Part shown: one piece after another, positions 9,434-45,351 of the stretch
How positions within the stretch are numbered: the first letter of the stretch is position 1
Layout: the number at the start of each line of letters is the position of its first letter
From: an uncultured delta proteobacterium
GTDB lineage: Bacteria; Desulfobacterota; Syntrophia; Syntrophales; UBA5619
Assembly: GCA_963842685.1 (NCBI GenBank)
Contig: CAWJHT010000041.1
Coordinates: 18,282 to 82,281, forward strand
DNA length: 64,000 bases
Reading direction: 5' to 3'
Program-made: the position numbers and the translations under genes
Notes under the pieces: model-generated
What the model saw: only the letters and a program-made list of their open reading frames with translations
Told to the model about the DNA's origin: nothing
The model's database searches: none

Positions 9434-9461
9434 CCTTCTTCGTTACTGTGAAAACGAAAGA

Positions 9462-11566: not shown

Positions 11567-11581
11567 CTCAACATCCTCCGG

Positions 11582-13016
<1,435 letters not shown>

Positions 13017-13054
13017 TCACGACTCTCCGCTGCAAGCCTCTATTTTCTGTCCGT

Positions 13055-13930: not shown

Positions 13931-13962
13931 TCAACCTTGCTCCCTTATGGCATAGGAAAAGT

Positions 13963-15477
<1,515 letters not shown>

Positions 15478-15480
15478 GCT

Positions 15481-16026
15481 CTATCTTTCCTCCCCTAAGA
15501 GATTCCTGATGTGGTTCAGTTGTGTCCTGATGCTGCCGTCGTAGAGCGTATCCCCGACCCGGACGACGATGCCCCCGAGAAGAGTGGGGTCTTCCTGGAC
15601 GGTCATCTCGACCTGCCTGCCGGTCAGCTTCTCCATCTCCCTCAGCAGCCGGGCGGAGAGCTCGCCGGTGAGAGGGAAGGCCGTCTTCACCGTGACACTG
15701 ACTTTTTTGAGGGCATCCTCCACCAATTCCCGGTAGCAGCCTTCGATATCGGAAAGGATGCCGATGCGTCGCTTGTCGACGAGCAGTTTCAGAAAGTTGG
15801 CGGTCAGCGGGGAGAGGTGGAGCTTCGCAAGAAGCGCTTCTACAACCGCTTTCTTGTCGGGCTGATCGAAGACCGGGTTGGCCAGAAACTCGCTCAGAGT
15901 CTTGTTTTCCTTCAAGAGGGCGGAAAAACGACCCAGCTCCTGAGAGTACTCCTCGTAACGCTGCTCTTCGCCGGCGATTTTAAAAAATGCGCGGGCGTAA
16001 CGTTTGGCGATATTGCTGCTGATCAA
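15481..16026 (-). CDS. atpH: F1 ATP synthase delta (OSCP) subunit; lies in one continuous ORF with subunit b
   Basis: (L/M)ISSNIAKRYARAFF...LLGGIVVRVGDTLYDGSIRTQL. A possible TTG start at 16026. There is no stop codon between the b part and the delta part (ORF 15481..16677). Confidence 0.75.
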   Translation of the reverse strand: MISSNIAKRYARAFFKIAGEEQRYEEYSQELGRFSALLKENKTLSEFLANPVFDQPDKKAVVEALLAKLHLSPLTANFLKLLVDKRRIGILSDIEGCYRELVEDALKKVSVTVKTAFPLTGELSARLLREMEKLTGRQVEMTVQEDPTLLGGIVVRVGDTLYDGSIRTQLNHIRNLLGEER

Positions 16027-16677
16027 TTTTTGCTCACCACCTTCGTCGATATAGTCCTCGACCATGGCTTCATGATCCGTCGCCTGGATATGCTTCCTCA
16101 AGAGCTCTTCGGCCATCTGCGTGGAGAGGCGGACCGTCTCGCTGCGGAGCTGTTGAGATGCCTTCTTGAATTCCTGTTCAATCCGCGTCTGAGTGTCTTC
16201 CTTCATCTTTTCCGCCGCCTTCCCGGCTTCCGCGATGATCCGCTCTTTTTCGGAAAGGCCCTGGGATCTGATCATTTCACTGATCTGCTCAATTTCCCCC
16301 GTCGCCTTGTCGAGCTTTATGGAGTATTCCTGGAACTTCTTTTCCGCCGCCTCGCGGGCCGCTGCGGCTTCGGCCAAGGCGGTCCGGATCCCTTTATGCC
16401 GTCCGGTGAAGAACTCCTTCGCCTTCTTTGCCAGGAGCCAGTATATGACGCCGGCCAGGACGATGAAGTTGACCGATCTCCAGAAAAAATTCAACCAGTT
16501 CGGGCCCTCGTGGCCTCCCGTCTCGCCACCTCCTGAAGCATAGGCTGCCGTCAGCCGGAAAACACAGACCATGAGGCAGGGGATCAGGCAGAGAAAAATC
16601 CTGCGACCGGTTCCCAGCCCTTTTATCGGCAGTCCTTCATGGCTCCCGGAACGGCCGGGTCCGGGCTTCTCTCTCAT
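16027..16677 (-). CDS. atpF: Fo ATP synthase subunit b; continuous with delta in this sequence
   Basis: One TM segment (FIVLAGVIYWLLAK) followed by a long charged helix. The start overlaps the stop of the b' gene. Confidence 0.7.
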
Positions 16678-28296: not shown

Positions 28297-28940
28297 CTAC
28301 CGGGGGCGCTCGGGGGTCATCCGTTCGAGCAGTTTCTCCGCCCTGTAGGTGTTGAAGATGCCGCAGTCGCACATCCGGGAGAGTCTTCTTGGCGGCCGCC
28401 TTGCAGGTTATTTTCCCCTGATCGATCTTCTCGACCATATGCCCGGATCAGGTTGGCGGAGACCATCGCGTGGCCGCACAGGGTGTGGATCTCCAGAATC
28501 TCCCCCTTCGGCACGTTCTCGGTATTGCCGTGGATGCCCAGGGAGTAGTTGACCGTGTGGGGGGCGATGCCGATTTCCGCGCAGATCTTTTCCGTCTCCC
28601 CGCAGAGCCCCGAGACGACGGTCGAGATGCCCAGGTCCGCCTCCTTGAGCTCCTTGAGGCAGGCCTTGATCGTCTCGCGGTCCTTGAATACCGCGTGGAT
28701 GATCCGGCTTTTGGCCTCCGTCTTGAGGAACTCCATGTCGTAGATCTCGCCGTCGCCCCAGGTGGGGTTGTGGTTCCCGAAGTTGACCAGGTCCTTCTCG
28801 TAGTGGGAGATCACCTCCCAGACCCGGCGCATCGTCTCTTCGGAGCCCTCGTGGTTCACGAAGCGGGATGTCCGGAGCAAGAGGACGTAATCCTCCTTCA
28901 GATCCTCCGGGTTTCCCTGTCTGTGCAGCGTGTGGGTCAT
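28297..28940 (-). pseudogene. Uncharacterised Cys-x-His...Cys-x-Cys protein, copy 1; two frame breaks near the 3' end
   Basis: MTHTLHRQG...DY...RTSRFVNHEG...TLCGHAMV. The C-terminus MCDCGIFNTYRAEKLLERMTPERPR* is recovered after two frame shifts. The start overlaps the stop of the upstream ferredoxin-domain gene (ATGA). Confidence 0.6.
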
Positions 28941-29676
28941 TTTGCACCTCCCTCGAACAGCGGCCGGCCGAGCCCCACGTTCGTTTTCGTATTCGGCCTC
29001 GGGGTGAAGCCGGCCTCCCTGGCGATGGCCAGGACCGGCGTGCCGCCGTCGGGGTCCAGGCGGCTGATCAGATCGAGGGAGAAGGCCGTGTCGATCCGCC
29101 CGGAGACCTCCCGGACGACCTCCAGCACCTCCTTGAGCCGCTCCACCGGGATCTTGAGCTCGATGATCGCCGACAGGACCCTCTCGTTCAGGACGGCTTC
29201 GTGGAACTTCCCTGTCTTCGGGTCGGACATCAGCTCCGCCACGGGATTGTTCGGTTCGAACTCCACCCCCAGCCGGGCGATCGCCATGGCCGCGGTCTCC
29301 ATATCCCGGAAGGAGGTCCCGACGCCGGGGCGCCCCATCTCCAGGGCCACGCCGGCCCAGCCGCGGGTGAACCGGCCGGTCACGTCGTTGGTCTTCATCT
29401 CCTCGGTGCCGCGGCCGTTGCCGGTCGTGGAGGGGTGCTTGATATGGGGGTTGCTGAAGTATTCACGCAAGACCCGGGGCCATTCCAGTTTGGGCATGTA
29501 GATCGCGTCGACCGGGCAGACGCCGGATCGTTTAAAGCAGCAGCCGCACTCCACGCACCCGACCTGGTCGATTTCGCTGACCGATGCGCCTCCCGTTCCA
29601 CCGACCGGATTGCTCCGACCGGGCAATAGGGGTGGCATTCATCACATCCGATACACTTTTCCGGATCGATTTGCAT
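28937..29676 (-). pseudogene. 2x[4Fe-4S] ferredoxin-domain protein with an uncharacterised ~170-aa C-terminal domain, copy 1; frame break ~29600
   Basis: MQIDPEKCIGCDECHPYCP (ORF 29395..29676), then CVECGCCFKRSGVCP...HPSTTGNGRGTEEMKTNDVTGRF (ORF 28937..29638). Confidence 0.65.
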
Positions 29677-29697
29677 AGTGGTCTCCTCTGTGAGCGG

Positions 29698-30348
29698 TTA
29701 TGGTTTGCCTTGGCCTGCCTTGGGCGCGCACTCCTCAAGGATCTGTCGGCAGCGGGTGGTGTTGAAGATTCCGCACGGGCAGGGCTGGGCCAGAAGGTGC
29801 GCCCCCTTCTCGGGGGTCATCTTCCCCGCCTTCACCCGGTCCATCACCGCCTTCGTGAGTTTCGAGCCGACCATGCCGTGGCCGCACATGGTCGTGACCT
29901 GCAGGACCTCGTCCTGGGGCAGAAGGGCCCTCTTCCCGTGGACACCCAGGGAGAGGAAGGCCGTGTGGGGGGTAATACCCACCTCCCCGGCGATTTTCGT
30001 GACCTCGTCGATCAGGCCGCTGATGACGATCGAGATTCCCGTGTCGGCTTCCTTGAGTTTTGTGAGGAACGAACGGACGGTCTCCTTGTCGGAGAAGCAG
30101 CCGGCGACGCCGTAGGCCTTGTCCAGTGTGGCCGCGTACTCCTCCGGTTTCAGGCCGGCCTCGTAGCTTTTGCCGGCCTGGCTGGAGCCGTAGTTAACGA
30201 GCTTCTTTTCGCTGAGGGCGATGCTGAGGATCTTACGGAGCTTGGGGCCGCAGCCCTCCCGGTTGACATAGCGGGAGGCGCGGGCGTAGAAGGTATAGTC
30301 ATTCTGAAGCTGTTCGGTGGTTCCGTGACGGTGTAATGCGTGGCTCAT
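29698..30348 (-). CDS. Uncharacterised Cys-x-His...Cys-x-Cys protein, copy 2 (intact)
   Basis: MSHALHRHGTTEQLQNDY...RASRYVNREG...TTMCGHGMVGSKLTKAVMDRVKAGKMTPEKGAHLLAQPCPCGIFN. Confidence 0.7.
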   Translation of the reverse strand: MSHALHRHGTTEQLQNDYTFYARASRYVNREGCGPKLRKILSIALSEKKLVNYGSSQAGKSYEAGLKPEEYAATLDKAYGVAGCFSDKETVRSFLTKLKEADTGISIVISGLIDEVTKIAGEVGITPHTAFLSLGVHGKRALLPQDEVLQVTTMCGHGMVGSKLTKAVMDRVKAGKMTPEKGAHLLAQPCPCGIFNTTRCRQILEECAPKAGQGKP

Positions 30349-30429
30349 GTTTTTCTCCTTAGCGGCCGTCGAAAAGCGCTCGGCTTCCCGGACTTTGTCA
30401 AGTGGCTATCCGTATGGTTTAGCAGGATT

Positions 30430-31152
30430 CTATTCCTCTTTGATGGGTCGTCCCATCCCCATATTGATTTTGGCGTTGGGACGGGCGGGGACACCCAGGG
30501 CCTCGAGCTTTTCGCGGACCGGCAGGGTGCCGTCCTTGGTGAAGCGCGTCGCCAGTCCCCAGGAGACCACGGTGTCGACCTCGGCCAGGACGGGCTGGAG
30601 CTGCCGGACGACCTCCTCGAGTTGCTCTTCCCGGATCTTGAACTCCAGGATGGCCGAGAGGACCTTTTCGTTCCTGAATTCCGGTTTCATCTTTCCGGTG
30701 AACGGCGCCTCCAGCAGGGCGAAGACGGCGTTGTCGTGTTCCAGTTCCACGTCCATCTTGACCAGGGCCAGCAGGACCTTTTCCAGGTCCGCCATCCGGG
30801 CGCCCGTCCCGGGACGGCCGAATTCGAGGGCCATGCCGTACTCCCCCCGTCGGAACCGGCCGGTCACGTCGTTGGTCTTCATCTCCTCGGTGCCGCGCCC
30901 CCCCTGGTTTGTCGAGGGGTGCCAGACGCCCGGGTCGCTGAACTGGGCACGGACGGCCCGTGGGTATTGCATGGCCTCCTCGGGCATGTACAGGGCATCC
31001 GTCGGGCAGACGCCGGCGTGCAGACAAACGCCGCACTCGACGCATTCATCCTGGTCGATGGAGACGGCATCGTCCCTCTCGGCGATGCAGTTCATCGGGC
31101 AGAAGTCGATGCATTCCAGGCAGGCGATGCACTTCTCCGGATCGATCTTCAT
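30430..31152 (-). CDS. 2x[4Fe-4S] ferredoxin-domain protein with an uncharacterised C-terminal domain, copy 2 (intact)
   Basis: CIACLECIDFCP and CVECGVCLHAGVCP, then HPSTNQGGRGTEEMKTNDVTGRF. The ATG overlaps the gntR-family stop (ATGA). Confidence 0.75.
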   Translation of the reverse strand: MKIDPEKCIACLECIDFCPMNCIAERDDAVSIDQDECVECGVCLHAGVCPTDALYMPEEAMQYPRAVRAQFSDPGVWHPSTNQGGRGTEEMKTNDVTGRFRRGEYGMALEFGRPGTGARMADLEKVLLALVKMDVELEHDNAVFALLEAPFTGKMKPEFRNEKVLSAILEFKIREEQLEEVVRQLQPVLAEVDTVVSWGLATRFTKDGTLPVREKLEALGVPARPNAKINMGMGRPIKEE

Positions 31153-31829
31153 GTGGTTTCCTCCCCATTCTTGAATATTTCCGAAAATCGCTTGATCTGG
31201 CCGAGCACAACACCCCTGCGGATGGCCTCGGCCGCTTCGGCGTCACCCGCCTCGAAGGCGGCGATGATCGCCCCGTGTATTCTTGTTGAGTTTTCCATCC
31301 ATCCCGGTCCAACCATGAGTGCTGCACGATAGCGCGTGGTTTGTTTGTCAAAGTCGCGGATCAGCCGGATCAGCCTCGGGTTTCCGCAGGAGTCAACGAT
31401 CAGTTCGTGGAATTTCTGGTTCAGCCGTTGGTAGACCGCATCATTTCCCTTTTCGGCGGCCCGAATCATCTTTTCGTGTAGCTTCTTGAGCGCCTCGATG
31501 AGTCCGGGGGGCTGGCACTGGACGGCCAGAGACATGGCAAGGCCCTCGATGCTGGCCCTGATCTTGTAGATGTCCTGCGCCTCCTGTTGGGTGATCCTGG
31601 CTACAGAGATCCCTTTGCGCGGTTCGCGGATCACAAAACCACGGCTCTCCATGATCTGGAAGGCTTCCCGCACTGGGGTGGGGCTTACGGAAAGGGTCTT
31701 GCAGAGCGCCTCCACGACGATTCTTTCTCCGGGTTGGAGAGTTCCGTCAATGATCCTGGCCTCCAGATCTTCGACGATGTGCTCTGCTAGACTCTTATGA
31801 TTGATTCGTTCGTCCATCCGGTCATCCAT
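31149..31829 (-). CDS. GntR/FadR-family transcriptional regulator, copy 1
   Basis: wHTH region LSVSPTPVREAFQIMESRGFVIREPRKGISV plus an FCD-type C-terminal domain. The ORF is open up to 31895; MDDRMDE at 31829 is the likelier start. Confidence 0.8.
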   Translation of the reverse strand: MDDRMDERINHKSLAEHIVEDLEARIIDGTLQPGERIVVEALCKTLSVSPTPVREAFQIMESRGFVIREPRKGISVARITQQEAQDIYKIRASIEGLAMSLAVQCQPPGLIEALKKLHEKMIRAAEKGNDAVYQRLNQKFHELIVDSCGNPRLIRLIRDFDKQTTRYRAALMVGPGWMENSTRIHGAIIAAFEAGDAEAAEAIRRGVVLGQIKRFSEIFKNGEETT

Positions 31830-31874
31830 CCAAGGGCGATTTTCTGCACCGACTTTGCATGGAGAGAGAATATT

Positions 31875-31898
31875 TTGTCGACAATATTTTGTCAAGGA
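31875..31898 (+). promoter_or_regulatory. Candidate GntR operator: palindrome TTGTCGACAA plus TTTGTCAAGGA
   Basis: TTGTCGACAATATTTTGTCAAGGA. A near-identical 24-mer occurs at 45168..45191 (22 of 24 positions match). Confidence 0.55.
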
Positions 31899-32010: not shown

Positions 32011-32039
32011 TTGACACGTGGAAATGACTTTACTATGGT
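32011..32039 (+). promoter_or_regulatory. Sigma70-like promoter upstream of tctC (copy 1)
   Basis: TTGACA, a 17-nt spacer, then TATGGT. This would leave a leader of about 240 nt before the ATG at 32285. Confidence 0.35.
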
Positions 32040-32284: not shown

Positions 32285-33265
32285 ATGACAAGGAAGGTAT
32301 GGTTGTGTGCGGCAGTGCTTGTTTTCACGGTTGTGACCTGCATGGCGGCGTCCAATGTCCTGGCCGCTTATCCTGAAAACCCGGTCGAGATCGTCGTCCA
32401 TTCGTCGCCGGGCGGGGGGAGTGATCTGTTTGCCCGGCAGATCGCCAACATCCTGGAGAGGGAAGGCCTCATCAAACAGAAGCTTCAGGTGGTCAACCGG
32501 ACGGGTGGCGGCGCGGCGATGGCCGTCAATTATCTGGCCGGTAAAAAGAACGATCCCTATGTCTTCATGAATACCACAACCGGTCCCCTGACGACGGTTC
32601 TGCGGGGCGCCACCCGTTTGAAGTTCGAAGGAGCTGTGCCCATCGCCATGCTGGCGGAGGACCCCAACCTGGCGTTTACCGGTTATGATTCCCCTTTCAA
32701 GAGCATGAAAGACGTCATCGCAGCAGCGAAAAAGGCGCCCAAGAAGGTGAATGTCGCCATCGGCACCATCGGCGGTTCCGAGCATATCTGCGCCCACCGC
32801 GTGGCAAAGGCGGCCGGCGTGGAATTCAACATTGTGGCCTTCAAGGGCGGCGGCGAGGCGGCGGCCGCGCTGCTCGGCGGGCACGTGGACCTGAGCTTCG
32901 GAAACGTCCAGGAGCAGATGGGCCAGATCGAGGCGAAGAAGGTCCGAGCGCTGGCCACGATGACGGAAACTCGGCTCCCTTTCCTGCCGAACGTCCCCAC
33001 GATGCAAGAGGAAGGGTACAACGCGGTTTACACGCAGTATAGAGGATTCTGGGCGGCCCCTGGATTCCCTGATTACGCCGTCAAGTACTGGGAAGAAACT
33101 TTTGAGAAGCTGATGAAAGTGCCGGCCTTCAAGGAATACCTGAAGTCAAACCAGGCCGTGGAATCCTTCCGCAAGCACGAGGAGTTCAAGAAATACCTCG
33201 TGAAATATGTGGAGGTTCTGCAAAAAGACATCGACACCCTGGAAATTTACAAAGAGAAAAAGTAG
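32285..33265 (+). CDS. tctC: Tripartite tricarboxylate transporter substrate-binding protein TctC, copy 1
   Basis: Intact ORF: signal peptide, then YPENPVEIVVHSSPGGGSDLFAR, and a Bug/TctC-like sequence throughout. Confidence 0.85.
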   Translation: MTRKVWLCAAVLVFTVVTCMAASNVLAAYPENPVEIVVHSSPGGGSDLFARQIANILEREGLIKQKLQVVNRTGGGAAMAVNYLAGKKNDPYVFMNTTTGPLTTVLRGATRLKFEGAVPIAMLAEDPNLAFTGYDSPFKSMKDVIAAAKKAPKKVNVAIGTIGGSEHICAHRVAKAAGVEFNIVAFKGGGEAAAALLGGHVDLSFGNVQEQMGQIEAKKVRALATMTETRLPFLPNVPTMQEEGYNAVYTQYRGFWAAPGFPDYAVKYWEETFEKLMKVPAFKEYLKSNQAVESFRKHEEFKKYLVKYVEVLQKDIDTLEIYKEKK

Positions 33266-33300
33266 AACCGCGGGATCGCCCTGTTCAGAAGGAGCCATGA

Positions 33301-33762
33301 ATGAAGAAAGCAGACAGGATATTTGCGATCATTTGCCTGGGATTGAGCGGCTGGCTCATCCGGGAATCGTTCAAGTATGATTATATGACCATGTACACCC
33401 CCGGTCCCGGCTTTCACCCCTTCTGGCTGGGAATCTGTCTTGGCCTGCTCTCTCTTTATTTGCTCTTTGACACCTTCCGGCGCAGGGATGCCAAGGAGGA
33501 GGGTCAGTCGATATCTGCCGGGGAAGAAGGGGCTGATCCGGGGGGTCTGATCCTGCTGATCACGGCGGGGCTGGCGCTTCTGATGACCCGGCTGGGGTTC
33601 GTGCTGAGTTCCTTTGTCTTCATTGTGCTGACGCTCGCCATCCTGGAGAAATTCAAGATCTTCAAGAGTATCCTGTATGGCGCAGTGATGAGCGGCGCCA
33701 TCTTTCTGATTTTTCGCTACTGGCTTGAGGTTGACCTTCCTAAGGGATGGTTGGGATTCTAG
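33301..33762 (+). CDS. tctB: Tripartite tricarboxylate transporter small membrane subunit TctB, copy 1
   Basis: Intact four-TM small protein located between tctC and tctA. Confidence 0.75.
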   Translation: MKKADRIFAIICLGLSGWLIRESFKYDYMTMYTPGPGFHPFWLGICLGLLSLYLLFDTFRRRDAKEEGQSISAGEEGADPGGLILLITAGLALLMTRLGFVLSSFVFIVLTLAILEKFKIFKSILYGAVMSGAIFLIFRYWLEVDLPKGWLGF

Positions 33763-33777
33763 CAGGAGGAGCAGTCC

Positions 33778-35280
33778 ATGGATGTTTTGCATAGCTTAAT
33801 GCATGGCTTTTCGATTTTTTTCACCCCATACAACCTCTGGATGGCGGTGGTGGGCTGTTTTTTCGGCACCCTGGTGGGCGTCCTGCCCGGTCTGGGGGCT
33901 TCGGCCACGATCGCCCTGCTGATCCCCTTTACCTTCGGGATGAACGCGACGGCCGCCATGATCATGATTTGCTCCCTCTATTACGGATCGAAATACGGGG
34001 GTTCCATCACGTCGATCCTGATCAACATCCCCGGTGAGAACGCCTCGGTGGTCACCACCTTCGACGGCTATCAGATGGCCCTCCAGGGGCGCGCAGGCGC
34101 CGCCCTGGGGATCGCCGCCATTGGCTCGTTTATCGGCGGCATCCTGGGCACCTTCGGGCTGATTTTCGTTGCCGTCCCCCTGGCCCAGTTCAGTCTGAAA
34201 TTCGGTCCGGCCGAATATTTCAGCCTCATCATCATGGGGATGCTCACCATTGTTTTTGTGGGCGGCAAATCCATCACCAAATCCCTGATGAGCGGCGTCA
34301 TCGGGATTTCCCTGGGGGTGGTGGGGTCGGACATCGTTCAGGGGGCCCCCCGCTTCGTGTTCGGCATCCCCGAACTGATGGACGGCATCGACTTTGTCGT
34401 GGTCGTCATGGGGATCTTCGGTCTCGGGGAAGTCCTCGTCTCGGCCGAAGAGTACATGAAAATGGATTCCATCAAGGTCCCCTTTGCCAAACTATGGCCG
34501 ACTTTCAGGGATCTGGCGGACTCCAAATGGGCCATTCTCCGAGGGACGGCAATCGGCTTTGTCATCGGCGCACTGCCCGGGGCGGGGGCGACGATCGCCT
34601 CCTTTTTGTCTTATGGCGTAGAGAAGAGCGCCTCCAAGCATCCGGAACGTTTCGGCAAGGGGGCGATCGAAGGAGTCGCCGGACCCGAGACTGCCAACAA
34701 CGCCGCCTGCTCCGGCGCCATGGCCCCTCTGCTGGCCTTGGGCATTCCGGGATCCGGGGCGACAGCCGTGATGCTGGGAGCTCTGATGCTCTATGGACTG
34801 AAACCCGGCCCTATGCTCTTTACGACCAGCCCCGATTTCGTCTGGGCGCTCATCGCCAGCATGTTCGTCGGGAATGTGATCCTGCTGATCATGAACCTCC
34901 CCATGGTGCCCCTGTTCGCCCTGAGTCTCCGGATCTCTTACAGCCTTCTGTACCCCATCATCATCGTGATCTGCATGATCGGCGTCTATTCGCTCAACAG
35001 CAGCATCTTTGATATCTGGATGATGTGGGTCTTCGGCATCATCGGCTATTTCATGAAAAAATACGACATCTCCGGCGCCCCCCTAATCATCGGCCTGGTG
35101 CTGGGTCCCATCCTGGAGCAGTCCCTCTACCGGGCTCTTTCCCTGGCTCACGGAAGTATGCTGGTTTTTGTGACGCGTCCGATTTCGGCGACGCTCTTGG
35201 GCATCGCCGTCGTGATGTCTATTTTTGTCTCTTTGAAAACAATCAAAACTGCGCGGAAACAGCTCTCCGAAGAGGTCTGA
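33778..35280 (+). CDS. tctA: Tripartite tricarboxylate transporter large permease TctA, copy 1
   Basis: Intact 500-aa polytopic protein: [45 protein letters not shown]. Confidence 0.9.
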
Positions 35281-35399: not shown

Positions 35400-35546
35400 A
35401 TGATCATCGATCGGGAAACCTGCATCGGGTGCGGAAGGAGGATGGCCTGCTCCTGCCCCTGTGGTATCTTCAATGTCCCCCGAACAGTGGAGGTCCTCAA
35501 AACCATGGCCGCCAAACAGGGGTCCGCGGGCGGGGATGAGAAATGA
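35400..35546 (+). CDS. 48-aa Cys-rich mini-ORF. It resembles the N-terminus of the ferredoxin-domain gene joined to the C-terminus of the Cys-x-Cys gene, and is translationally coupled (ATGA) to the PrpD-family gene
   Basis: MIIDRETCIGCGRRMACSCPCGIFNVPRTVEVLKTMAAKQGSAGGDEK. Compare MKIDPEKCIAC... and ...PCPCGIFNT... Confidence 0.4.
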   Translation: MIIDRETCIGCGRRMACSCPCGIFNVPRTVEVLKTMAAKQGSAGGDEK

Positions 35547-36920
35547 CGGGAGAAAGGCAGACCGGCGGAGAGATCATCGGCCGTCTGAGCGCCTACGTGG
35601 CTGCGAGCGGGGAGACCGAACTCCCGCGGGAAGTGATCCACAAGGCCAAGCACCATATCCTCGACACCCTGGGGGCGATCGTCTGCGGTTCGAACCTGAA
35701 GCCCGGCCTGCTCGCCAAGCGGTTTGTCGCTGAGCAGGGGGGGGCGGCCGAGGCGCAGGTGGCGGGTTCCGCCGTCGTCACCACGGCGGTCCAGGCCGCC
35801 TTTGCCATGGGGATGATGGCCCATTCCGACGAGACCGACGACTCCCATGAACGGGCGGGCATGCACCCCGGCTGCGCGATCGTCCCGGCCGCCCTGGCCG
35901 TCGCCCAGAGAGAGGGGGCGGATGGGACCAGATTCATCAGGTCTGTCGTGGCCGGTTACGACATCGGCTGCCGTATGACCCAGGCCCTGGGGGTGCAGAA
36001 CGTTCGATCCCGCGCCCTGTCCCTGCACGGGATCGGGACCAATTTCGGGGCGGCCGCCGCCGCGGCGTCTCTTCTGGGGCTCAAGGAGGCGTCGGTCCGC
36101 TTCGTCTGGGATTATTCCTGTCAGCAGGATTCGGGCAAATACTACTGGATGCGCGACAGGGACCACGTGGAGAAGGCCTTCGTCTTCGCCGCGATGGGGG
36201 CCCGCAATGGGGTCACCTCGGCGCTCCTGGTCCAGTCTGGATTTACTGGAGTTGACGACGCCTTCAGCGGCGAGAACAACTATTTCGAGTCCTTTGGCCC
36301 GGGTGTAAACCCGGGACAGCTCATCGAGGAGCTTGGCAGCCGTTACGAGATCCAGCACACCGACATCAAGAAATACTCCGTCGGCGCTCCGATCCAGGCC
36401 CCTCTCGACGCCCTTTTGATCCTGAGGGAGCGGCATGGCCTGAGGGCCGCGGACGTAGAGGCCATCAACGCCCGCGTTCCCGACGACCGCGTCCTCATCG
36501 TCAGAGACAGGGACATGCCTGACGTCGATCTGAAGCACGTCCTGGCCGTCGCCCTGATCGACGGCACGATGACCTTCGAGGCCTCCCATTCCTATGAACG
36601 GATGAAGGACCCGCAGGTGCTGGGGGTCCGCGAGGATCTCCCTGGTGGGCGACCCCGGGCTCAGGACGGCGAAGGTTAAGCGCGGCGGGATCGTGGAGAT
36701 CACGACCCGGGACGGCACAAGGCTCAGAGAGCACGTCGAGCTTGTCCGCGGCCGTCCCGGAAACCCCATGTCCGACATGGAGATCGAACAGAAATGCACG
36801 GACCTGATGCGGCCGGTGCTGGGCGAGGAGCGGACCGCGTGCCTGATCGAGCGGATATGGAACCTGGAGAAGGTCGAGGACATGCGCGAGTTCAGGTCCC
36901 TGCTTTCCCCTCAGAGCTGA
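35543..36920 (+). pseudogene. MmgE/PrpD-family protein (2-methylcitrate dehydratase-like); frame break ~36640
   Basis: HHILDTLGAIVCGS, AHSDETDDSH, HPGCAIVPAALAVA. The C-terminal part is in ORF 36645..36920. Confidence 0.8.
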
Positions 36921-37131
36921 CAACCAGGCGTCCCCTAAGCGGAGACGTTTCATCCGCGAGATCATCAGACCCTGTGACGACCTGCATGTTTTACCGGGTG
37001 CCGACACTCTATCGTCACCCTTTTTCTGGCCCGGTGACTACACACCTATTCCGCAATGCTCCGCAGGGGTGTGGTCTCCTCAGGGGGCCGGTTCTGCTCC
37101 CCGAGAAAGCCATCCAGGTGATGCAACGGAT

Positions 37132-38484
37132 CTAGACTGCCGGAGGGGCTGCCGTGAATGCCAGAATCTTTTCGCACCAGGCGGCGACGTCGAGGAGCCG
37201 TTCCTCGCCGTAGGGCTGGGCCGCTATCTGCATCGCAAAGGGAAGTCCGTTGGCGTCGAGACCCGTTGGAAGCGACATTGCCGGGAACCCGGCGACGCTC
37301 CAGGGCTGGTTGAAGAGGCTCGATCCGGTGGAGGAGAGACCCCGTGGGGCCGTCGTCGCGGCGACCGGCATGATCACCGCATCCACGTCGGCCATCTTTT
37401 CGCTCATCTCCCGCTGGAAGAGGATCCGGTAGCGGTGGTGTTCCACATACTCGTGGCCGGAGATGGAAGCTCCCTTCTCCAGGCGGACCTTGAGTTTCGG
37501 CGGGTAGTCGTCCCTGTAGGCCTCGAAGAGGTGGCGGTGATAGGCGTAGAGTTCCGCCTGCTTGATGATGCTCCAGCAGGGGCCGACAAAGGCAAAGGAG
37601 GGGGAAAGGCGAGCTCGACGATCTCCGCGCCGGCCTGGAGGAAGTTGTTCACGCACGGCGGCGAGGTTCGCCAGGACCTCCGGGGAGGTCTCGGCCTCGA
37701 AAAACTCCCGGATGTAACCGAGACGCGGCGGGGCGCCCGCGATCCGGGCGCGGGAGCGTAGCGGCGGCTCCGGCATCCGGGCGAACGGGCGGGGCTCCTT
37801 CTCGCGGATGCAGGGCCAGAGGATCGCGGCGTCGGCCACCGAGCGGCAATGGAAGCCCACATGGTCGATGGTCCAGGAATTAGGCAGCACACCTTCGTTG
37901 CTCACCTCGCCGTAGGTCGCCTTGAAACCGACGATTCCGTTGTAGGCGGCCGGCCGGAGGAGCGAACCCCCCGTCTGCGTCCCCAGGGCCGCCGGGCACA
38001 TCCGGTCCGCCACGGCGGCGCCCGGAGCCGCTGCTCGATCCGCCCGGTGTGTGCTCGGGGTTCCAGGGGTTCCGGGTGATCGTGGGGTCGTTGTTGGCGA
38101 ACGGGGTCGTCTCCGTCTTGCCCAGGAAGATCGCCCCCGCATTCCGGAGACGGGCAATCACCGGGGCATCCTCGCGGGGGACGGTCGCCGGGTAGACCGG
38201 CGTTCCGCAGCGGGTGTATTGCCCACGGACGTCAATGATGTCCTTGACCCCGAGGGGGATGCCGTGGAGCGGTCCCCGGGGTTTGGCCTTCCTGCAATTC
38301 ACGGTCGCAGCGGCGCGCCTCTGCGAGGGCCTGCTTGTTCGTACACCTCGACCCAGGCGTGAATGGTTTCCTCCCGCGCATGGATCCGCTCCAGGCACGA
38401 CTCCACAAGCCTTTCCGCCGTCAGTTTGCCGGCCTTCATCCGTTCGCCGGCCTCCGGGATTGTCAACTCTCTCGGTTCCCGCAT
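37132..38484 (-). pseudogene. Amidase-signature family amidase (GatA-like); at least three frame breaks
   Basis: GIPLGVKDII and the GGSSSGS signature. Pieces lie in ORFs 38299..38484, 37880..38398 and 37132..38157. Confidence 0.8.
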
Positions 38485-38584
38485 GGAGTTCTATCTCCTA
38501 TGGCGTTATGTTTACTGGGGAAAGGCCCCGGCCACCTTCCTGCGGCGCCCGAGGCCTTCGGTTTCAGAGAATTTAAAATACTGG

Positions 38585-40093
38585 TTACTCCTCCGCCTCC
38601 TCGATGGCGGCCTTCTTCCCCTTCAGGCTCCTGATGCCGACGTAGAGGGACATCAGGACGATGATCCCCAGCAGCGTGGCCGAGATCGGCCGCTGGACGA
38701 AGACCAGCAGGTTCCCGTGGGAGAGGTTCAGCGCCTGGTAGAGGGACCTCTCCATCATCGGCCCCATCAGGAGCGCCATCAGCATCGGCGCGGCGGGGAC
38801 ATCCCCCTTCTTCATGAAATAGCCGCAGATGGCGAAGACCAGCATCAGCCCCACCTCGAAGAGGCCCGAGGCGACCGCGTAGGCGCCGACGATGCAGACG
38901 ATGAGGATCGCCGGGTAGATGAGGCCGTAGGGGATCCTGAGGAGCGAGGCGAAGAGCGGCACCAGGGGGAGGTTCATGACGATCAGGATGCATGTTCCCG
39001 ATGAACATCGAGGCCATGACCGCCCAGACGAAATCGGCGTTCTCGACGAAGATCATGGGACCGGGCTTCAGGCCGTAGAGGATCATCCCTCCCAGGAGGA
39101 CCGCCGTGGCCCCCGATCCGGGGATGCCCAGGGAGAACATCGGGACCATCGCCCCGGAGACCGCGGCGTTGTTGGAGGACTCCGGCCCCGCGACCCCTTC
39201 CATGACGCCGGTGCCGAATTTCTCCGGGTGCTTGGAGACGCTCTTTTCCACGCCGTAGGCTCAGGAAGGAGGCGATCGTCGGCCCGGACCCCGGGATGCA
39301 GCAGATGCAGAAGCCGACGAGGGTGCCCCGGAGGATCGCCCAGCGGCAGTACCAGATCTCCGACAATTTTCGGGAAGAGGTCCCGGAACTTGACCTTCAT
39401 CGGCACGATCTTCATGAACTCCTCGGCGGATTCGAGGACCTCGGCGATGCCGAAGGTCCCCATGACGAGGATGACGAAATCGATGCCGTCCAGGAGCTCG
39501 GATATCCCGTAGACGAACCGGTCCTTCCCCTCGACGATGTCGGTCCCGACGGTGCCGAGGCCGAGGCCGATGACCATGCTCATCAGGGATTTCGTGACGT
39601 CCTTGCCGCTGACGAAGATGATCGTGAACATCCCCATGAGGACGAGGCTGAACATCTCGGCCGGACCGAACTTGAGGCTGAACTCGGCGAGGGTGGACGC
39701 GGTGAAGGCGAGGCCGATCGTGCCGATGATGCCGGCGAAGAAGGAGCCGATGGCGGAGAGGCCCAGGGCCGTTCCCGCCTTTCCCTGCAGGGCGAGCTGG
39801 TGCCCCTCGATCGCCGTGATCACCGAGGAGGCCTCCCCGGGGACGTTGACGAGGATCGAGGTGGTGGAGCCGCCGTACATCGCCCCGTAGTAAAGGGAGC
39901 AGAGCATGATCATCGCGGGGGTGGCGTCCATGCCGAAGGTGATCGGCAGGATGATGGCCATCGTCGCCGAGGGGCCGAGGCCGGGGAGGATCCCGACCAT
40001 CGTCCCGAGGAAGGCGCCCAGGGCGGCCATCGAGAGATTGTAAGGGGTGAGGCAGGTCGCGAACCCGCCCATTAAATTAGTGATGACATCCAT
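38585..40093 (-). pseudogene. tctA: TctA large permease, copy 2; at least two frame breaks
   Basis: Paralog of 33778..35280: MDVITNLMGGF...GILPGLGPSATMAIILP. Pieces lie in ORFs 39083..40093, 38463..39251 and 38585..38977. Confidence 0.8.
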
Positions 40094-40114
40094 TTTGCTC
40101 TCCTTCTCCTTTCG

Positions 40115-40579
40115 CTAAATTCCCAGGAATCCCTTGGGGAAGCCCATGGTCAGGATGTATTGGAAGACGAACCAGGTCACGGCCGAGTAGGCGATCCCGT
40201 AGCCGACACTCTTGAGGATGCTGTACTGCTCCAGGAACGACAGGATCGCCGTCGTGAACAGGGCGAGCGTGAGGGGAAAGCCAAGGGATATTCATGGAGA
40301 ATCGTACGCCGAAGAGCATCAGCATGATGGCGCCGACGCGGATGAGGGCGTGCTTTTCGGGAAGGAGCTTCTTCGTTGTCCTTCTCGCTCGGTTTGCGTT
40401 TGAAGGTGTCGAGGAGAAGATAACAGGAAAGGAGTGCCAGGACGACCCCCACCCAGAAGGGCATGAAACCCGGTCCGGGGGTGAACTCTGTCATATAGTG
40501 TAAATTTTCTGGATTCGAGGTAGCACCAGAGGGCGAGCCCCAGCCCGATCACCCCGAAGATACGATCCGCTTTTCTCAT
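40115..40579 (-). pseudogene. tctB: TctB small subunit, copy 2; at least two frame breaks
   Basis: MRKADRIFGVIGLGLALWCYLESRKF parallels copy 1 (MKKADRIFAIICLGLSGWLIRESFKY). The tail ...GFPKGFLGI* ends at 40115. Confidence 0.65.
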
Positions 40580-40667
40580 AACTTGTCCTCCTGCAGTGGG
40601 GGTCTCCCGGTTTTAACCGCTATTTGTTTTCCTCCATGTACTTGAGGTCTTCCTGATGAGTTCCGCG

Positions 40668-41599
40668 TTACGTAGCCCACGAGAACGCCTTGGTCTCCGC
40701 CGCCGTCTTGTAGGCCGGGACGTAGTCGGACTTCTTCATGAACTCAGCGAACTCCTTGGTCTTCATCAGCTTCGCGAAGGCGTCCTGCCAGAACTTGTAC
40801 GCCTCGGTCGGGAAGTTCGGGCCGCCGAAGAACCCTCGGAACTGGGTGAAGGAGGCGTTGGTCCCCTGTTCGTTCAGGGTGGGGATGTCCTTGTAGTAGG
40901 GGACCCGGCGCTCGCCCATGTTGGCCAGGACCCTGGCGCGCTTGGCCTTCACATGGCTCGACGTCTCGGCGGTGTTCCCGAAGGCCATGTCGATGTGGCC
41001 GCCGATCAACTGGGTCGGGCTGAACTCGAAGGCGGTGATGTTGAACTTCACGCCCGCCACCCGCTCGATCCGGGCGGCCATGATGTGTTCCGAGCCGCCG
41101 ACGCTGTTGATCCCGACGCTCACCTTCTTGGGGTTCGCCTTGGCGTCGGCGATCAGGTCCTTGACGGTCTTGTAGGGCGATTTATAGGGGACGATCATGA
41201 CGTTCCCGTCTTCGACAAGCGTGCTCAGCCAGGTGACGTCCTCGATCTTCATCTGGGTCGTGCCGCGGATCATCGCATTGAGCTGGGCGGTCGTCCACAT
41301 CTGCACGACGTACGGGTCGCCCGCCTTTCGAGTTCAGGTAGTTGAGGGCCACGGCGGATGAGCCGCCCTGGCGGGTCTGGACCTGGATCTTGTTCTTTAC
41401 GATCCCGGTCTTGTTCAGGATGTCGGCGCAGGTGAGGACGAACAGGCCGGCGCCGCCGCCGGGCGAAGAGTGGTGCAGAAATTCGATCACCTTTTCCCTC
41501 TTCAGGGTAGGCGGCCTGGGCCGCGGGGGCGATCGCCAGGGTGAAGGCGAACAGCGAAAAAACGGCAACGATGGAAGATAAGAAACGTCTCTTTTTCAT
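40668..41599 (-). pseudogene. tctC: TctC substrate-binding protein, copy 2; two frame breaks
   Basis: Signal peptide MKKRRFLSSIVAVFSLF. HHSSPGGGAGLF is in a second frame. ORF 40668..41306 carries the remainder. Confidence 0.8.
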
Positions 41600-41693
41600 G
41601 ATAATCTCCTTTTCTTCGTGTCAGGGGCATCGGAAGCGACGCCCCTTCGGTTAGTGGTTCTAAAGCCCCTTGTAAAATATGGCTTTTGCGTCC

Positions 41694-42427
41694 TCACCTC
41701 CTTTCCCGTTTATTGTTAGTTATCGAACATCTCTCTTCCCCCAAAGGGGGATCTGCCATATAGAATCCTTCAGCGGCTCTCTCCATCCGGATTTCTTTCC
41801 CGTGCACGGCGTCGAGGATCTGCTCGCAGCGGTCGGTGTTGAAGATCCCGCAGGGGCAGGGCTGGGCGAGGAGATGGGCGCCCTTCTCGGGGGTCATCTT
41901 CCCCGCCTTCACCCGTTCCATGACGACCTTCGTGAGCTTGGAGGCGACCATGCCGTGGCCGCACATCGTCGTGATCTGCTGGACCTCGTCCTCGGGGAGG
42001 AGGGCCCTCTTCCCGTGAACGCCGAGGGAGAGAAAGGCCGTGTGCGGTTTGAGACCGATCTCCCCGGCGATCTTGACGATCTCGTCGATCAGGCCGCTGA
42101 TGACGATCGAGATCCCCGTGTCCGCCTCCTTGAGCTTCTTGAGGAACGACCGGACCGCCTCCTTGTCGGAGAAGCAGCCGGCGACGCCGTAGGCCTTGTC
42201 CAGTGTGGCCGCGTACTCTTCGGGCTTCAGGCCGGCCTTGATAGCTCTTCCCCGCCTGGCTGGAGCCGTAGTTGACGAGGTTCTTCTCCTCGAGGGCGAT
42301 GCTCAGGATCTTGCGGAGCTTGGGGCCGCACCCCTCGCGGTTGACGAAGCGGGAGGCCCGGGCGTAAAAGGTGTAGTCGTTCTGAAGCTGTTCTGCTGGT
42401 TCCGTGGCGGTGCAGTGCATGGCTCAT
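41694..42427 (-). pseudogene. Uncharacterised Cys-x-His...Cys-x-Cys protein, copy 3; at least two frame breaks
   Basis: MSHALHRHGT / EQLQNDYTFYARASRFVNREGCGPKLRKILSIA / ...MCGHGMVASKL...PCPCGIFNTDRC. Closely parallels copy 2. Confidence 0.65.
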
Positions 42428-42438
42428 GGCAGATCTCC

Positions 42439-43164
42439 TTATAGTTCGACGATGGGGCGTCCCATCCCCATGTTGATCTTCGCATTCGGCCGGGCGGGAA
42501 CCCCCAGGGCCTCCAGGCGGGCCCGGACCGGCAGGGTGCCGTCTTCGGCGAAGCGGGTCGCCAGCCCCCAGGAAACGACGGTGTCGACCTCGGCGAGGAC
42601 CGGCTGCAGCTGCCGGACGACCTGCTTCGAGCTGCTCCTCCCGGATCTTGAATTCGAGGATGGCGGAGAGGACCTTTTCGTTCCGGAATTCCGGTTTCAC
42701 CTTTCCGGTGAGCGGCTCCTCCAGAAAGGCAAAGACGGCATTGTTCGTCTCCAGCTCCACGTCCATCGTGACGAGGACCTGGAGGACCTTTTCGAGGTCG
42801 GTCATCCGGGCGCCCGTCCCGGGGCGGCCGAATTCGAGGGCCATGCCGTACTCCCCGCGGCGGAACCGGCCGGTCACGTCGTTGGTCTTCATCTCCTCGG
42901 TGCCGCGCCCCCCCTGGTTCGTCGAGGGATGCTAGACGCCCGGGTCGCTGAACTGGGCCCGGAGGGCGCGCGGGTACTGCATTGACCTCCTCCGGCATGT
43001 AGAGGGCGTCCGTCGGGCAGACGCCGACATGCAGGCAGACCCCGCATTCGACGCACTCGTCCTGGTCGATCTGAGACGCCGTCGTCCTTCTCCGCGATGC
43101 AGTTCATCGGGCAGAAGTCGATGCATTCCAGACAGGCAATACATTTTTCAGGATCGATCTTCAT
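42439..43164 (-). pseudogene. 2x[4Fe-4S] ferredoxin-domain protein, copy 3; frame breaks plus an in-frame TAG where copy 2 has Trp
   Basis: MKIDPEKCIACLECIDFCPMNCIAEKDD...; FSDPGV-TAG-HPSTNQGGRGTEEMKTNDVTGRFRRGEYGMALEFGRPGTGARM. The stop codon lies at 42932..42934. Confidence 0.7.
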
Positions 43165-43830
43165 TTTTCCTCTCCGTTCTTGAATATTTCCGGGAACCGT
43201 TCAATCTGGCCGAGGATCGAGTTTTTCCGGATCCGCTCGGCCGCCTCGGCGTCGCCCGCCTCGATGGCGTCGATGATGCGCCGCGTGGATCTTCGTGGAG
43301 TTGGTCATCCAGCCCGGACTGTTCGCGACGGCCAGACGGTAGCGCATCGTCTGCTTGTCGAAGTTCCGGATCAGTTGGATCAGGCGCTGGTTACCGCAGG
43401 CGATGATGATCAGCTCGTGGAATTTCTGGTTCAGATTGCTGATAGGTCGTGCCGTTTTCCTTCTCCGCCGCCCGGATCATCTGCTCGTGCATCTTTTTGA
43501 GTTTCTTCAGGAGCTCGGGCGTCTGTTTCTGGACGGCGAGCGACAGTGGCGAGGCCGTCGAGACTGGCGCGGATGCGGTAGATGTCCTCCGCCTCCTGCG
43601 GTGTGATTTTGGCGACCGAGATCCCTTTCCGCGGTTCGCGGACGACAAATCCCTTGCTCTCCAGGATCTGGAATGCCTCCCGCACGGGAGAACGGCTGAC
43701 CCCGAAGGTCTTGCAGAGCGACTCCTCGATGATCCTCTGTCCCGGTTTCAGTGTCCGGGCGATGATCCTCCGCTCCAGATCCTCGACGATATGTTCCGCC
43801 AGGCTTCTTCTGTCTGATCAATTCGTTCAT
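43161..43830 (-). pseudogene. GntR/FadR-family regulator, copy 2; several frame breaks
   Basis: MNELIRQKK..., SPVREAFQILESKGFVVREPRKGISVAKITPQEAEDIYRIRASLDGLA. The tail EIFKNGEEK* overlaps the start of copy-3 ferredoxin (ATGA), as in copy 1. Confidence 0.7.
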
Positions 43831-43889
43831 GAGACTGCCAGCCCTCCTTTTCCGTCCTGTGGGGAACAGTGAAAACGCCTCTTCATTGT

Positions 43890-45062
43890 TCACGATTTCA
43901 GACCGTACATCCGGGCGGCGTTGTCGTGGAGAATCATCCGCCCTGTCCTTTCCGCATCCCTTTCGGCCATGAGGCCCAGACGGACGGCATCGGTCAGCAC
44001 CTCACCGAGGGCGATCTTCGCGGTTTTGGCGGCAAGCCAGGAGACCTCCGGCGAACCGTGGCCTCCGCTGCCGATCATCAGCTTGGAGAGGGGGGCCAGC
44101 GAGATCACGTCGCGGTAACACCTCGACGATCCGCTGGGAGGTCCAGGGGGTCGTCCAACCCATGTCGACCCAGACATGGGGGAAGGTATGGGCCATCATG
44201 CCGGCGTGCTGCATCCAGGGGTGGCCGGCGTGGAGGAGGATGAGACGCGTCCGGAGGAAACGGGGCTGGCGAAGAATCGGGACGAGGAGAAAGGGATCGG
44301 TGTTGGCGACGGGGCCGTTCCAGAGGCCGCCGGTGATGCCGGTATGGATGTGAATGGGGAACTTCAGCTCCTGGGCCTGGATCATCGTCGCCAGCCAGAC
44401 GGCCATGTAGAGCTTCTTGAAGGCCTCGCCGTCTCCCGCAGCGGCGGCGGGGTAGATCCGTTCGGCCTCGTCGGCCTCCACCGGCGGGGCGCCGAAACCG
44501 ACCAATTCGCCCAGGTGGGACTTGATGCCCACGAAGCCGTCCTGACGGATCGACTTCTCGACGGCATCCTGGAAACTGCGGAGGAGTTCCGGGTAGGAGC
44601 CGCATCGATTTCATAAGGTTCTTGAGGAGCGGGTCCATCTGGAGGAGACGGATTTTCGGACCGGGGGTCAGGTCGAGGATCGGATCGTTGATCGGAAGAT
44701 TGGAGTCCATGACGGAGCAGACGATCCCGGCGTCCTCGTAGAGCATTTTCGCGTAACCGGCCAGTCCCTCCTTCGCCGTCCGGCGGTTCCTTTCGGCTGT
44801 GACGGCCGAAAGCTCCGGCTCGCAGCCGAAGAGCTTGGCGAGCTGGCAGACCATCGGTCAGGACGGCGCCCATATGGGGAAAATGGAACAGGAGGTCATC
44901 GGTGGCGCCCCAGAGCTTGGACTTGGCGACGCCGGCGATGGGGGTGTCGGCGATGCCGTGAAAGAACTCCCGGGCGAGCCATATCGGTTCGATGGTCTTC
45001 TTTTCGGGTTCGAGGACGTGGCAATGGTTGTCTACGACGGGACATTGGGTAAAATCTGGCAT
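43890..45062 (-). pseudogene. Amidohydrolase-2 (metal-dependent TIM-barrel hydrolase/decarboxylase) family protein; several frame breaks
   Basis: MPDFTQCPVVDNHCHV (HxH motif), preceded by GGAGGA. Later pieces include IHIHTG, LILLHAGHPW and a HDNAARMYGL tail. Confidence 0.7.
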
Positions 45063-45167
45063 AATGATGATCCTCCATTCGGAATTGATGAATTTCCCCG
45101 ATACGAGGGGCAGGGAAGCTGAAAACCACCCCTCCGGTTGCAACGATGATGTGCCGATGATGGTAGA

Positions 45168-45191
45168 TTGTCGACAATCGTTTGTCAAGGA
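45168..45191 (+). promoter_or_regulatory. Second copy of the candidate GntR operator
   Basis: TTGTCGACAATCGTTTGTCAAGGA, about 105-130 nt upstream of the amidohydrolase ATG. A related TTGTGTCGATAA lies at 45211..45222. Confidence 0.5.
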
Positions 45192-45351
45192 AAATTTATA
45201 TGCAACAGTATTGTGTCGATAATAAAGGGCATTCCGTGAGAAAGGAGACGGCAAAGCGTTGATATCTTAGAAGAAAATGCATGAACCGCTATGGGTTCGG
45301 CATACGATGGGTTTGACAACGTGACAAGGATTGATTCTTTGGCACAAACGC

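Follow-up and report, generated by a model that had tools for sequence, protein, structure and literature searches.

What is made by two small adjacent genes that recur three times within one stretch of bacterial DNA, and that carry between them a ferredoxin domain and little else that is recognisable? The stretch in question (hereafter the window) comprises 64,000 nucleotides of an uncultured delta proteobacterium of the Syntrophales (contig CAWJHT010000041.1, positions 18,282 to 82,281). The first gene of each pair encodes a ~240-amino-acid ferredoxin-domain protein, here designated A, and the gene directly after it encodes a ~215-amino-acid Cys/His-rich protein, here designated B. A sequence-only reading of the window had placed the pairs at 28297..29676, 29698..31152 and 41694..43164. 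The A-B pair is a real, strongly conserved and unannotated two-gene module. Judged from its sequences, it is probably a ferredoxin-coupled iron-sulfur (Fe-S) enzyme type of catabolism whose catalytic parts are non-homologous and undescribed.

Two conserved proteins in three copies

A tblastn search of the window with the intact pair 2 recovers three copies of A and three of B at the positions given above, all on the minus strand. Pair 2 is the only pair with uninterrupted open reading frames (ORFs) as assembled. A2 (30430..31152; 240 residues) consists of a ferredoxin domain (residues 1-60) and a Cys-free domain carrying GRGTEEMKTNDVTGR, and B2 (29698..30348; 216 residues) has the N-terminus MSHALHR, an alpha/beta domain and a helical domain with Cys155-Gly-His157 ... 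Cys190-Pro-Cys192. Pair 1 is made up of divergent paralogues, A1 (28937..29676), with one frame change near 29579-29595, and B1 (28297..28940), which changes frame twice through 1-nucleotide (nt) insertions, of a G within 28435-28448 and of an A within 28378-28390. In pair 3, A3 (42439..43164) has five gaps of non-triplet length, mostly single bases, relative to its orthologue in the related locus L002. B3 (~41694..42427) starts with MSHALHRHG at 42427 and has nine such gaps, its true 3' end lying somewhere between ~41780 and 41694. The sequence-only reading thus had the coordinates and the quoted motifs right, having silently read across the frame breaks of pairs 1 and 3; what needs correction is the second cluster motif of A2, which is CxxCxxCx5CP rather than CxxCxxCxxxCP.

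Pairs 2 and 3 share 84-94% protein identity in most in-frame segments and 68% in one segment, and pair 1 is ~49% (A) and ~36% (B) identical to pair 2. A3 is 64-97% identical to the L002 A protein depending on the segment, most segments falling at 85-97%. Intact orthologues of reconstructed B1, of 213-214 residues and ~90% identical to it, are present elsewhere. The genes are tightly packed: the stop codon of A1 overlaps the start codon of B1 in the sequence ATGA, as does the stop codon of an upstream gntR gene with the start of A2, and the A3-B3 and B2-A1 gaps measure 11 nt and 21 nt, respectively. The A2-B2 spacer (30349-30429) is 81 nt long, compared with a family median of ~11 nt and with 11 nt in the closest relatives, L001 and L002. 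Since the nucleotide alignment to L001/L002 stops exactly at this spacer, a small insertion is suggested.

The N-terminal 60 residues of A form a clostridial 2x[4Fe-4S] ferredoxin domain, as the cysteine motifs had led the earlier reading to propose. This assignment is borne out by a match to Pfam Fer4 (E = 2.6e-9, above cut-off), by a fold match to 1fdn in Foldseek (template modelling (TM) score by target 0.82, root-mean-square deviation 2.0 over 57 columns, 44% identity), and by eight cysteines (C8, C11, C14, C18, C37, C40, C43 and C49) that are 100% conserved among 72 A sequences sharing 36-90% identity. Clostridial ferredoxins of this type (PF00037 / PF14697, 1fdn) have both cluster motifs and the eight cysteines in common with A, but A adds a 180-residue domain and has a five-residue rather than a three-residue spacer before the last cysteine. 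The added C-terminal domain is devoid of cysteine, in agreement with the earlier reading. It carries the motif G-R-G-T-E-E-x-K-T-N, which in the same 72 sequences is 100% conserved at G85-R-G-T, E90, K92 and N94, and S72, G112-R-P114, G153, S166, E170, K228, N230, G232 and G234 are conserved to the same degree. So many invariant polar residues are typical of an active site.

Searches of Pfam, NCBIfam and the sequences and profiles of the PDB return no match for the C-terminal domain of A. The structural model of A (predicted local distance difference test score (pLDDT) 80) has no PDB fold match at E <= 1e-3 in Foldseek beyond the ferredoxin domain. In the model the C-terminal domain has a ferredoxin-like alpha/beta core, and the motif segment ahead of this core is poorly modelled. 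The best non-ferredoxin fold neighbours are non-significant, namely 2eky (MJ1052; E = 8e-3, TM by query 0.24) and PII (E ~1e-2). RefSeq and UniRef name A '4Fe-4S binding protein' or, wrongly, 'indolepyruvate ferredoxin oxidoreductase subunit alpha'. Both this name and 'PreA subunit', another database name, were rejected on the ground that only the ferredoxin domain matches. The TIGR03336 (IOR_alpha) model scores 23.4 bits on A against a cut-off of 650.9, and the match covers residues 1-54 only, corresponding to the C-terminal ferredoxin part of the model.

Among 127 representatives of B sharing 27-54% identity, C155, G156 and H157 are 100% conserved, C190 and C192 99%, R7 98%, H6 95%, H128 93% and H3 89%, and residue 2 is Ser or Thr in 97%, giving an N-terminal motif (S/T)-H-x-L-H-R. 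The N-terminal M-(S/T)-H may resemble the metal sites formed by an N-terminal amine and histidine in proteins such as RcnR. The model of B (pLDDT 89, predicted TM score 0.86) has an alpha/beta domain at about residues 18-122 followed by a helical domain, and residues 146-207 have the predicted order loop-helix-helix-loop-helix. No match to B was found in Pfam, NCBIfam or the PDB by sequence or profile, and Foldseek of the model against the PDB returned nothing at E <= 1e-3 (best E = 0.03, TM by query <= 0.29). RefSeq and UniRef call B a 'hypothetical protein'. The idea that A and B are diverged duplicates of one another was discarded (hhalign probability 0.7%).

Two exceptional arrangements bear on the role of B. 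One homologue, P0399 (411 residues), is fused to a C-terminal Fer4_11 dicluster domain, and in the Dehalococcoidales locus L081 (7412-8615) an FMN-reductase-like flavoprotein, recognised by eye, stands ahead of B in place of A. Both point to B as the partner that needs an electron carrier. Another rare B architecture, P0418 (397 residues), has a weak Fer4_6 match only. Of the two subunits, A alone is an evident Fe-S protein; that B also holds a cluster is suggested by its invariant Cys3His set.

The earlier failure to place either protein in a characterised enzyme family stands, as Pfam, NCBIfam, the PDB and Foldseek match only the ferredoxin domain of A. Going by sequence and structural models, the C-terminal domain of A and the whole of B appear to belong to no described family. 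A further proposal, that the C-terminus of B resembles a BFD-like [2Fe-2S] domain, failed both the profile and the ligand-pattern test. The PF04324 profile has no match in 54 B sequences at E <= 10, and hhalign of B against two Bfd sequences, a weak test, gave a probability of 0.1%. No BFD entry is among the top 50 hits of whole-chain Foldseek for B, a search in which a sub-domain of ~50 residues would score poorly. The predicted loop-helix-helix-loop-helix order of B would suit a BFD-like domain. Like such a domain, B has a short helical segment in which a ligand pair is followed by ~32 residues of helix-turn-helix and a second ligand pair, but its ligand pattern is C-G-H ... C-x-C (three Cys, one His) and not C-x-C ... 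C-x-x-C, so that the likeness appears to be one of pattern analogy alone.

Fe-S sites with three Cys and one His ligand occur in the [2Fe-2S] proteins of the CDGSH/NEET type and in 4-hydroxybutyryl-CoA dehydratase, which has a His-ligated [4Fe-4S] cluster. The invariant candidate ligands of B are likewise three Cys and one His, including a C-x-C and a Cys-x-His, but B has no sequence or fold relationship to either. The CDGSH motif C-x-C-x2-(S/T)-x3-P-x-C-D-G-(S/A/T)-H is absent from the B sequences, and only the ligand composition is alike. Neither B nor the C-terminal domain of A has a Pfam, NCBIfam or PDB match to the hydro-lyases of the aconitase and Fe-S L-serine dehydratase types.

Distribution and gene neighbourhood

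The B family is large. Its profile matches 780 clusters (50% identity) at E <= 1e-3 and 467 at E <= 1e-10, and it occurs in 372 places in a set of species-representative genomes. Among the matches listed, nearly all are stand-alone proteins of 200-230 residues. Host lineages, taken from record titles, include Syntrophales and other Thermodesulfobacteriota, Bacillota (Enterocloster, Marasmitruncus, Hungatella, Halanaerobium), Synergistota and Chloroflexota, as well as a metagenome-assembled genome (MAG) of Spirochaetaceae, Methylomirabilales, Aminicenantes, a Bathyarchaeota archaeon and 'Ca. Mnemosynella'. Judging from these titles, they are lineages of anaerobes. Cultured human-gut species are among the hosts, namely Enterocloster hominis, E. 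aldenensis and Marasmitruncus massiliensis. The Marasmitruncus pair has the accessions WP_101908892/WP_101908893, and B of E. hominis is WP_008726490.

The pairing of A with B extends well beyond this genome, across many phyla. In 89 of 93 testable copies, distributed over 79 loci, B directly follows the C-terminal domain of A on the same strand, and the median gap is ~11 nt. Twelve of the 79 loci have two to five pairs, which fits substrate diversification. The most extreme expansion among the loci seen is in L022 (Thermodesulfobacteriota MAG040), where five A-B pairs and an extra B surround a single amidase-tctCBA block within 14 kb (2176-16049). Pair number also differs between close relatives, as indicated by the related contig L091, which has an additional A-B pair (2604-4064) between its PrpD-like gene and tctA that is missing at the corresponding junction of the window (35433/35434). 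Locus L005 has a B gene (10001-10636) without an upstream A, located after fragments of a 2-oxoacid dehydrogenase E2 gene on a contig rich in transposases and split genes; the locus has probably decayed, and it was not counted against the pairing as a genuine B without A.

Genes for a tripartite tricarboxylate transporter (TTT), TctCBA, are the most frequent neighbours. Of 79 loci, 49 have them within 6 kb of a pair; among the 35 loci with at least 5 kb on both sides, the figure is 21. Counted by family over 81 loci, TctC is found in 43, TctA in 42, TctB in 39 and a GntR/FCD regulator in 26. These are followed by a LeuC-like large subunit of the aconitase family (17 loci) and its LeuD-like small subunit (10), an old yellow enzyme (OYE)/BaiCD-like Fe-S flavoenzyme (11), MmgE/PrpD, Amidohydro_2 and AbrB-like membrane proteins (10 each) and an amidase-signature amidase (5). 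Further neighbours include NicX/M29-like, homoisocitrate/tartrate-dehydrogenase-like, HpcH-aldolase, GlcD/GlcF-type and RraA-like genes. L065 (14220-16121) encodes a fusion of a LeuD-like small subunit with a LarA-type domain similar to the Ni-pincer malate racemase (NCBIfam 435.7 bits, under the cut-off of 500), and the fusion gene lies downstream of A-B, tctCBA, and NicX-like and LeuC-like genes.

These neighbours bear out the catabolic context that had been suggested for the pairs, and their common theme is the uptake and conversion of hydroxy-, unsaturated or amide-bearing di-/tri-carboxylic acids. None of the neighbours compared with NCBIfam could be assigned to a specific enzyme. The NicX-like, Amidohydro_2 and PrpD-like neighbours have no NCBIfam match at E <= 1e-10; the amidase, OYE-like, dehydrogenase-like, LarA-like and RraA-like neighbours fall under every curated NCBIfam cut-off; and the LeuC-like and LeuD-like proteins pass broad NCBIfam subfamily models only, not a specific enzyme model. 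The TctC proteins of the window give no hint of a substrate, both being only remotely related to solved TctC, Bug and TphC structures.

Layout, candidate regulation and frame breaks

In the window the pairs belong to a catabolic island flanked by housekeeping genes (a LeuA/CimA-like synthase, MreB and Lon). The island consists of gntR-A2-B2-A1-B1 on the minus strand, a divergent intact tctCBA, a PrpD-like gene and a second operon on the minus strand. The GntR/FCD regulator gene occupies 31149..31817 (minus strand; Pfam GntR and FCD), and the L002 regulator aligns to 31152-31817. The first transporter operon (32285..35280, plus strand) comprises tctC (32285-33265), tctB (33301-33762) and tctA (33778-35280), with TctC and TctA recognised by Pfam and TctB by alignment to L002, and a promoter scan places a promoter-like site for it at 32011-32039. 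The MmgE/PrpD-family gene (35543..36920, plus strand) has one frame change at ~36.6 kb. The second operon, at 37.1-45.1 kb, has a syntenic and intact counterpart in L001/L002 with the order Amidohydro_2, GntR, A, B, TctC, TctB, TctA, amidase. Its first gene is of the Amidohydro_2 family (43893..45062, minus strand; eight non-triplet gaps relative to L002), and the other genes around pair 3 are a second GntR/FCD regulator gene (43167..43811), a second tctC (40620-41599), tctB (40118-40579) and tctA (38585-40093), and the amidase-signature amidase gene (37141-38484), all on the minus strand and all frame-disrupted.

Expression of the two minus-strand operons may be governed by a shared element. 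Upstream of gntR-A2-B2-A1-B1 is a promoter-like site, TTGACA-17-TATTCT (31867..31895, minus strand), that contains the palindrome TTGTCGACAA (31875-31884). A second promoter/operator element (45160..45196, minus strand), ~100 nt upstream of the pair-3 operon, has the arrangement CCTTGACAAA..TTGTCGACAA, with the palindrome at 45168-45177. Exact TTGTCGACAA occurs only twice in the window, and both copies are prefixed by CCTTGACAAA. The palindrome recurs in 12 of 90 fetched loci, including L001/L002 (7276-7285, upstream of Amidohydro_2) and L087 (3408-3417, upstream of A). GntR operators are of the GT-N-AC type, which TTGTCGACAA fits, and from its sequence and position the palindrome is likely to be the operator of the co-encoded GntR/FCD regulators.

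Whether the organism has three working pairs or one depends on what the frame breaks are. They are unevenly distributed. Non-triplet gaps number 8-17 in each of the amidohydrolase, TctC, TctA and amidase genes of the pair-3 operon, and its GntR and TctB ORFs are likewise broken. The 37.1-45.1 kb region as a whole aligns to the L001/L002 operon at 79% nucleotide identity with ~70 gap openings, compared with 0-4 gap openings for the pair-2 region. Indel density is ~1 per 100-150 nt in 35500-45300 and also in 28297-29676, most or all genes there being broken, and the neighbouring 29.7-35.3 kb has no such indels. The indels of the pair-3 operon are mostly single bases, with insertions and deletions alike, and most lie outside homopolymer runs; homopolymer error was ruled out as the cause, since most are in runs of 1-2 bases. 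Several lie at GATC or CCGG-containing sites, as noted by eye, and may stem from methylation-related basecalling error. Overlapping same-strand ORFs at 45185-47421 and 48461-50954 suggest that frame errors occur outside the catabolic island too; one set corresponds to a HisKA histidine kinase, and another includes a Na+/H+ exchanger ORF for which the Pfam alignment begins only at position 97 of the 375 in the profile.

It might be argued that copies 1 and 3 are genuine pseudogenes, perhaps very recently inactivated, so that a single working pair would be left. Their many frame changes stand beside none in pair 2 and the first tctCBA, the location of the indels outside homopolymers fits as well, and the extra G of B1, in CCGGGCAT, recurs in the independent contig L091, a relative of the window with 88-93% nucleotide identity and synteny from mreB to the amidase gene. 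The B1 gene of L091 shares that one insertion, lacks the other and has one more of its own. At the shared site (28435-28448 in the window, ~10950 in L091) both read CCGG[G]CAT, and each has a private indel nearby. The shared G must reflect either a sequencing error that recurs systematically or a mutation common to both contigs, and the changes downstream of it favour error: when the two sequences are read in the correct frame beyond the shared frameshift, five of their differences are synonymous and one is non-synonymous, counted by eye.

Pseudogenes are also hard to reconcile with the selection that the broken genes appear to be under. Stitched to the L002 frame, they give ratios of non-synonymous to synonymous substitution rates (dN/dS) of 0.11-0.30, and there is only one in-frame stop codon in total, despite 5-17 indels per gene; for the intact A2 and B2, dN/dS is 0.07. 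Moreover, the promoter/operator of the third pair's operon is intact, other genes in the window look truncated or split, and housekeeping genes of L091 are broken too, PBP2 being split into three ORFs. Pseudogene status for copies 1 and 3 is therefore unlikely. Because dN/dS in the stitched frames is purifying and the B1 differences are dominated by synonymous changes, the breaks are most likely assembly errors. On this sequence evidence the organism most probably has three working pairs.

Proposed function and significance

The function tentatively favoured for A-B, at slightly less than even confidence, is that of a two-subunit Fe-S redox enzyme, soluble and sensitive to oxygen, whose substrates are imported carboxylates. 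A and B would form a heteromer in which the two [4Fe-4S] clusters of A pass electrons in or out, to a metal or Fe-S centre on B. This reactive centre would be built on Cys-Gly-His ... Cys-x-Cys, possibly with a contribution from the N-terminal (S/T)-H-x-L-H-R. The invariant Arg, Lys, Glu, Thr, Asn and Ser residues of the Cys-free domain of A would help to build a pocket that takes an anionic substrate, and a polyanionic substrate might also be held by the N-terminal tail of B. From the neighbourhood, the substrate is predicted to be a cytoplasmic di-/tri-carboxylate or amide-bearing carboxylate brought in by the adjacent TctCBA, with expression controlled by a GntR/FCD repressor acting on the promoter palindrome TTGTCGACAA and, where a genome has several pairs, a different substrate for each. 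Candidate reactions are C=C reduction, reductive dehydroxylation and C-N cleavage, or an oxidation in the reverse direction. Ferredoxin-linked reductases operate in the anaerobic catabolism of carboxylates and N-heterocycles, 6-hydroxynicotinate reductase (EC 1.3.7.1) being an example; the E. barkeri enzyme is a single ~54 kDa polypeptide. The likeness of A-B to enzymes of this type would be one of role: they too have low-potential Fe-S input, and their operons also encode amidohydrolases, amidases and aconitase-family hydratases together with a carboxylate transporter.

Several points weigh against this proposal. No flavin, molybdopterin or other recognisable catalytic domain was found in A or B. 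The cores of the C-terminal domain of A and the N-terminal domain of B have generic ferredoxin-like alpha/beta folds, and the weak fold neighbours of both are ligand-binding or regulatory proteins (PII, ACT, DUF77). The motif segment of A (residues 60-100) is modelled at low confidence (pLDDT 55-65), metal binding by B is suggested by four invariant residues, and ~40% of loci have no nearby Tct genes. A literature search returned nothing on the A-B pair and no data on its substrate or expression.

Some of these points would suit a pair that is not an enzyme at all. If A-B sensed redox state or a ligand, or served the TTT transporter as an accessory in the cytoplasm, this would be in keeping with the PII, ACT and DUF77/YkoF-type ligand binders among the weak fold neighbours of its alpha/beta cores and with the TctCBA linkage in ~60% of loci. 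Those fold matches are non-significant, however (E >= 0.008, TM by query <= 0.29), and neither protein has an output or DNA-binding domain, a GntR regulator being already encoded alongside. There are up to five pairs for one transporter and 40% of loci without any, a stoichiometry ill-suited to an accessory, and a sensing or accessory role is considered improbable. Alternatively, the pair could be an electron-transfer adaptor without a substrate of its own that feeds low-potential electrons to a neighbour such as the OYE/BaiCD-like flavoenzyme. The ferredoxin fusion in A and the proximity of an OYE-like Fe-S flavoenzyme in Bacillota and Synergistota loci agree with this idea, but only 11 of 81 loci have the OYE-like gene, other redox neighbours are not widely shared, and many loci, such as L058, consist of A-B pairs and the transporter alone. 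With ~40 invariant non-Cys residues in the C-terminal domain of A and in B, which is beyond the needs of a shuttle, an adaptor role is rather hard to credit.

If the pair is an enzyme with its own substrate, its chemistry could still be other than redox. A-B might be an Fe-S lyase or isomerase with hydroxy- or unsaturated dicarboxylates as substrates, such as a hydratase/dehydratase, a racemase or a cis-trans isomerase. The site on B would then be a Lewis acid, like those of aconitase and L-serine dehydratase, and the ferredoxin domain would be structural or would serve only to keep the cluster reduced. Three invariant Cys with a nearby His are also known from substrate-binding clusters, and hydroxy-acid hydro-lyases and racemases (LeuC/LeuD-like, LarA-like) are among the neighbours. 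On the other hand, aconitase-family hydratases are already encoded in the same loci, and neither protein is homologous to the aconitase or serine-dehydratase families. The eight strictly conserved ferredoxin cysteines, the Fer4_11 fusion and the substitution of A by a flavoprotein indicate genuine electron flow, and a non-redox role is considered unlikely. The Fe-S redox enzyme remains the preferred, if tentative, function for A-B.

A bolder possibility, with a fair though less than even chance, is that A-B founds a class of metalloenzymes that is new, lacks flavin and is fused to a ferredoxin, with a Cys3His centre and a Ser/Thr-His-x-x-His-Arg tail, and that it carries out an orphan reductive step. 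If so, the step would be a dehydroxylation, C-N cleavage or unactivated C=C reduction on polycarboxylates or N-heterocyclic carboxylates, and enzymes of the class would occur widely among anaerobes, the syntrophic Syntrophales and Enterocloster of the human gut included. All copies of B are annotated 'hypothetical protein' beside a mis-named ferredoxin. Many unknown families exist, yet A-B is unusually well delimited and widespread, is present in cultured gut bacteria and is directly testable, having cultured hosts and only two genes to express. Knowing the reaction of A-B would probably supply a missing part of the anaerobic breakdown of carboxylates or amides. Many orphan TTT transporters would gain a function as well, and a new type of Fe-S active site could come to light.

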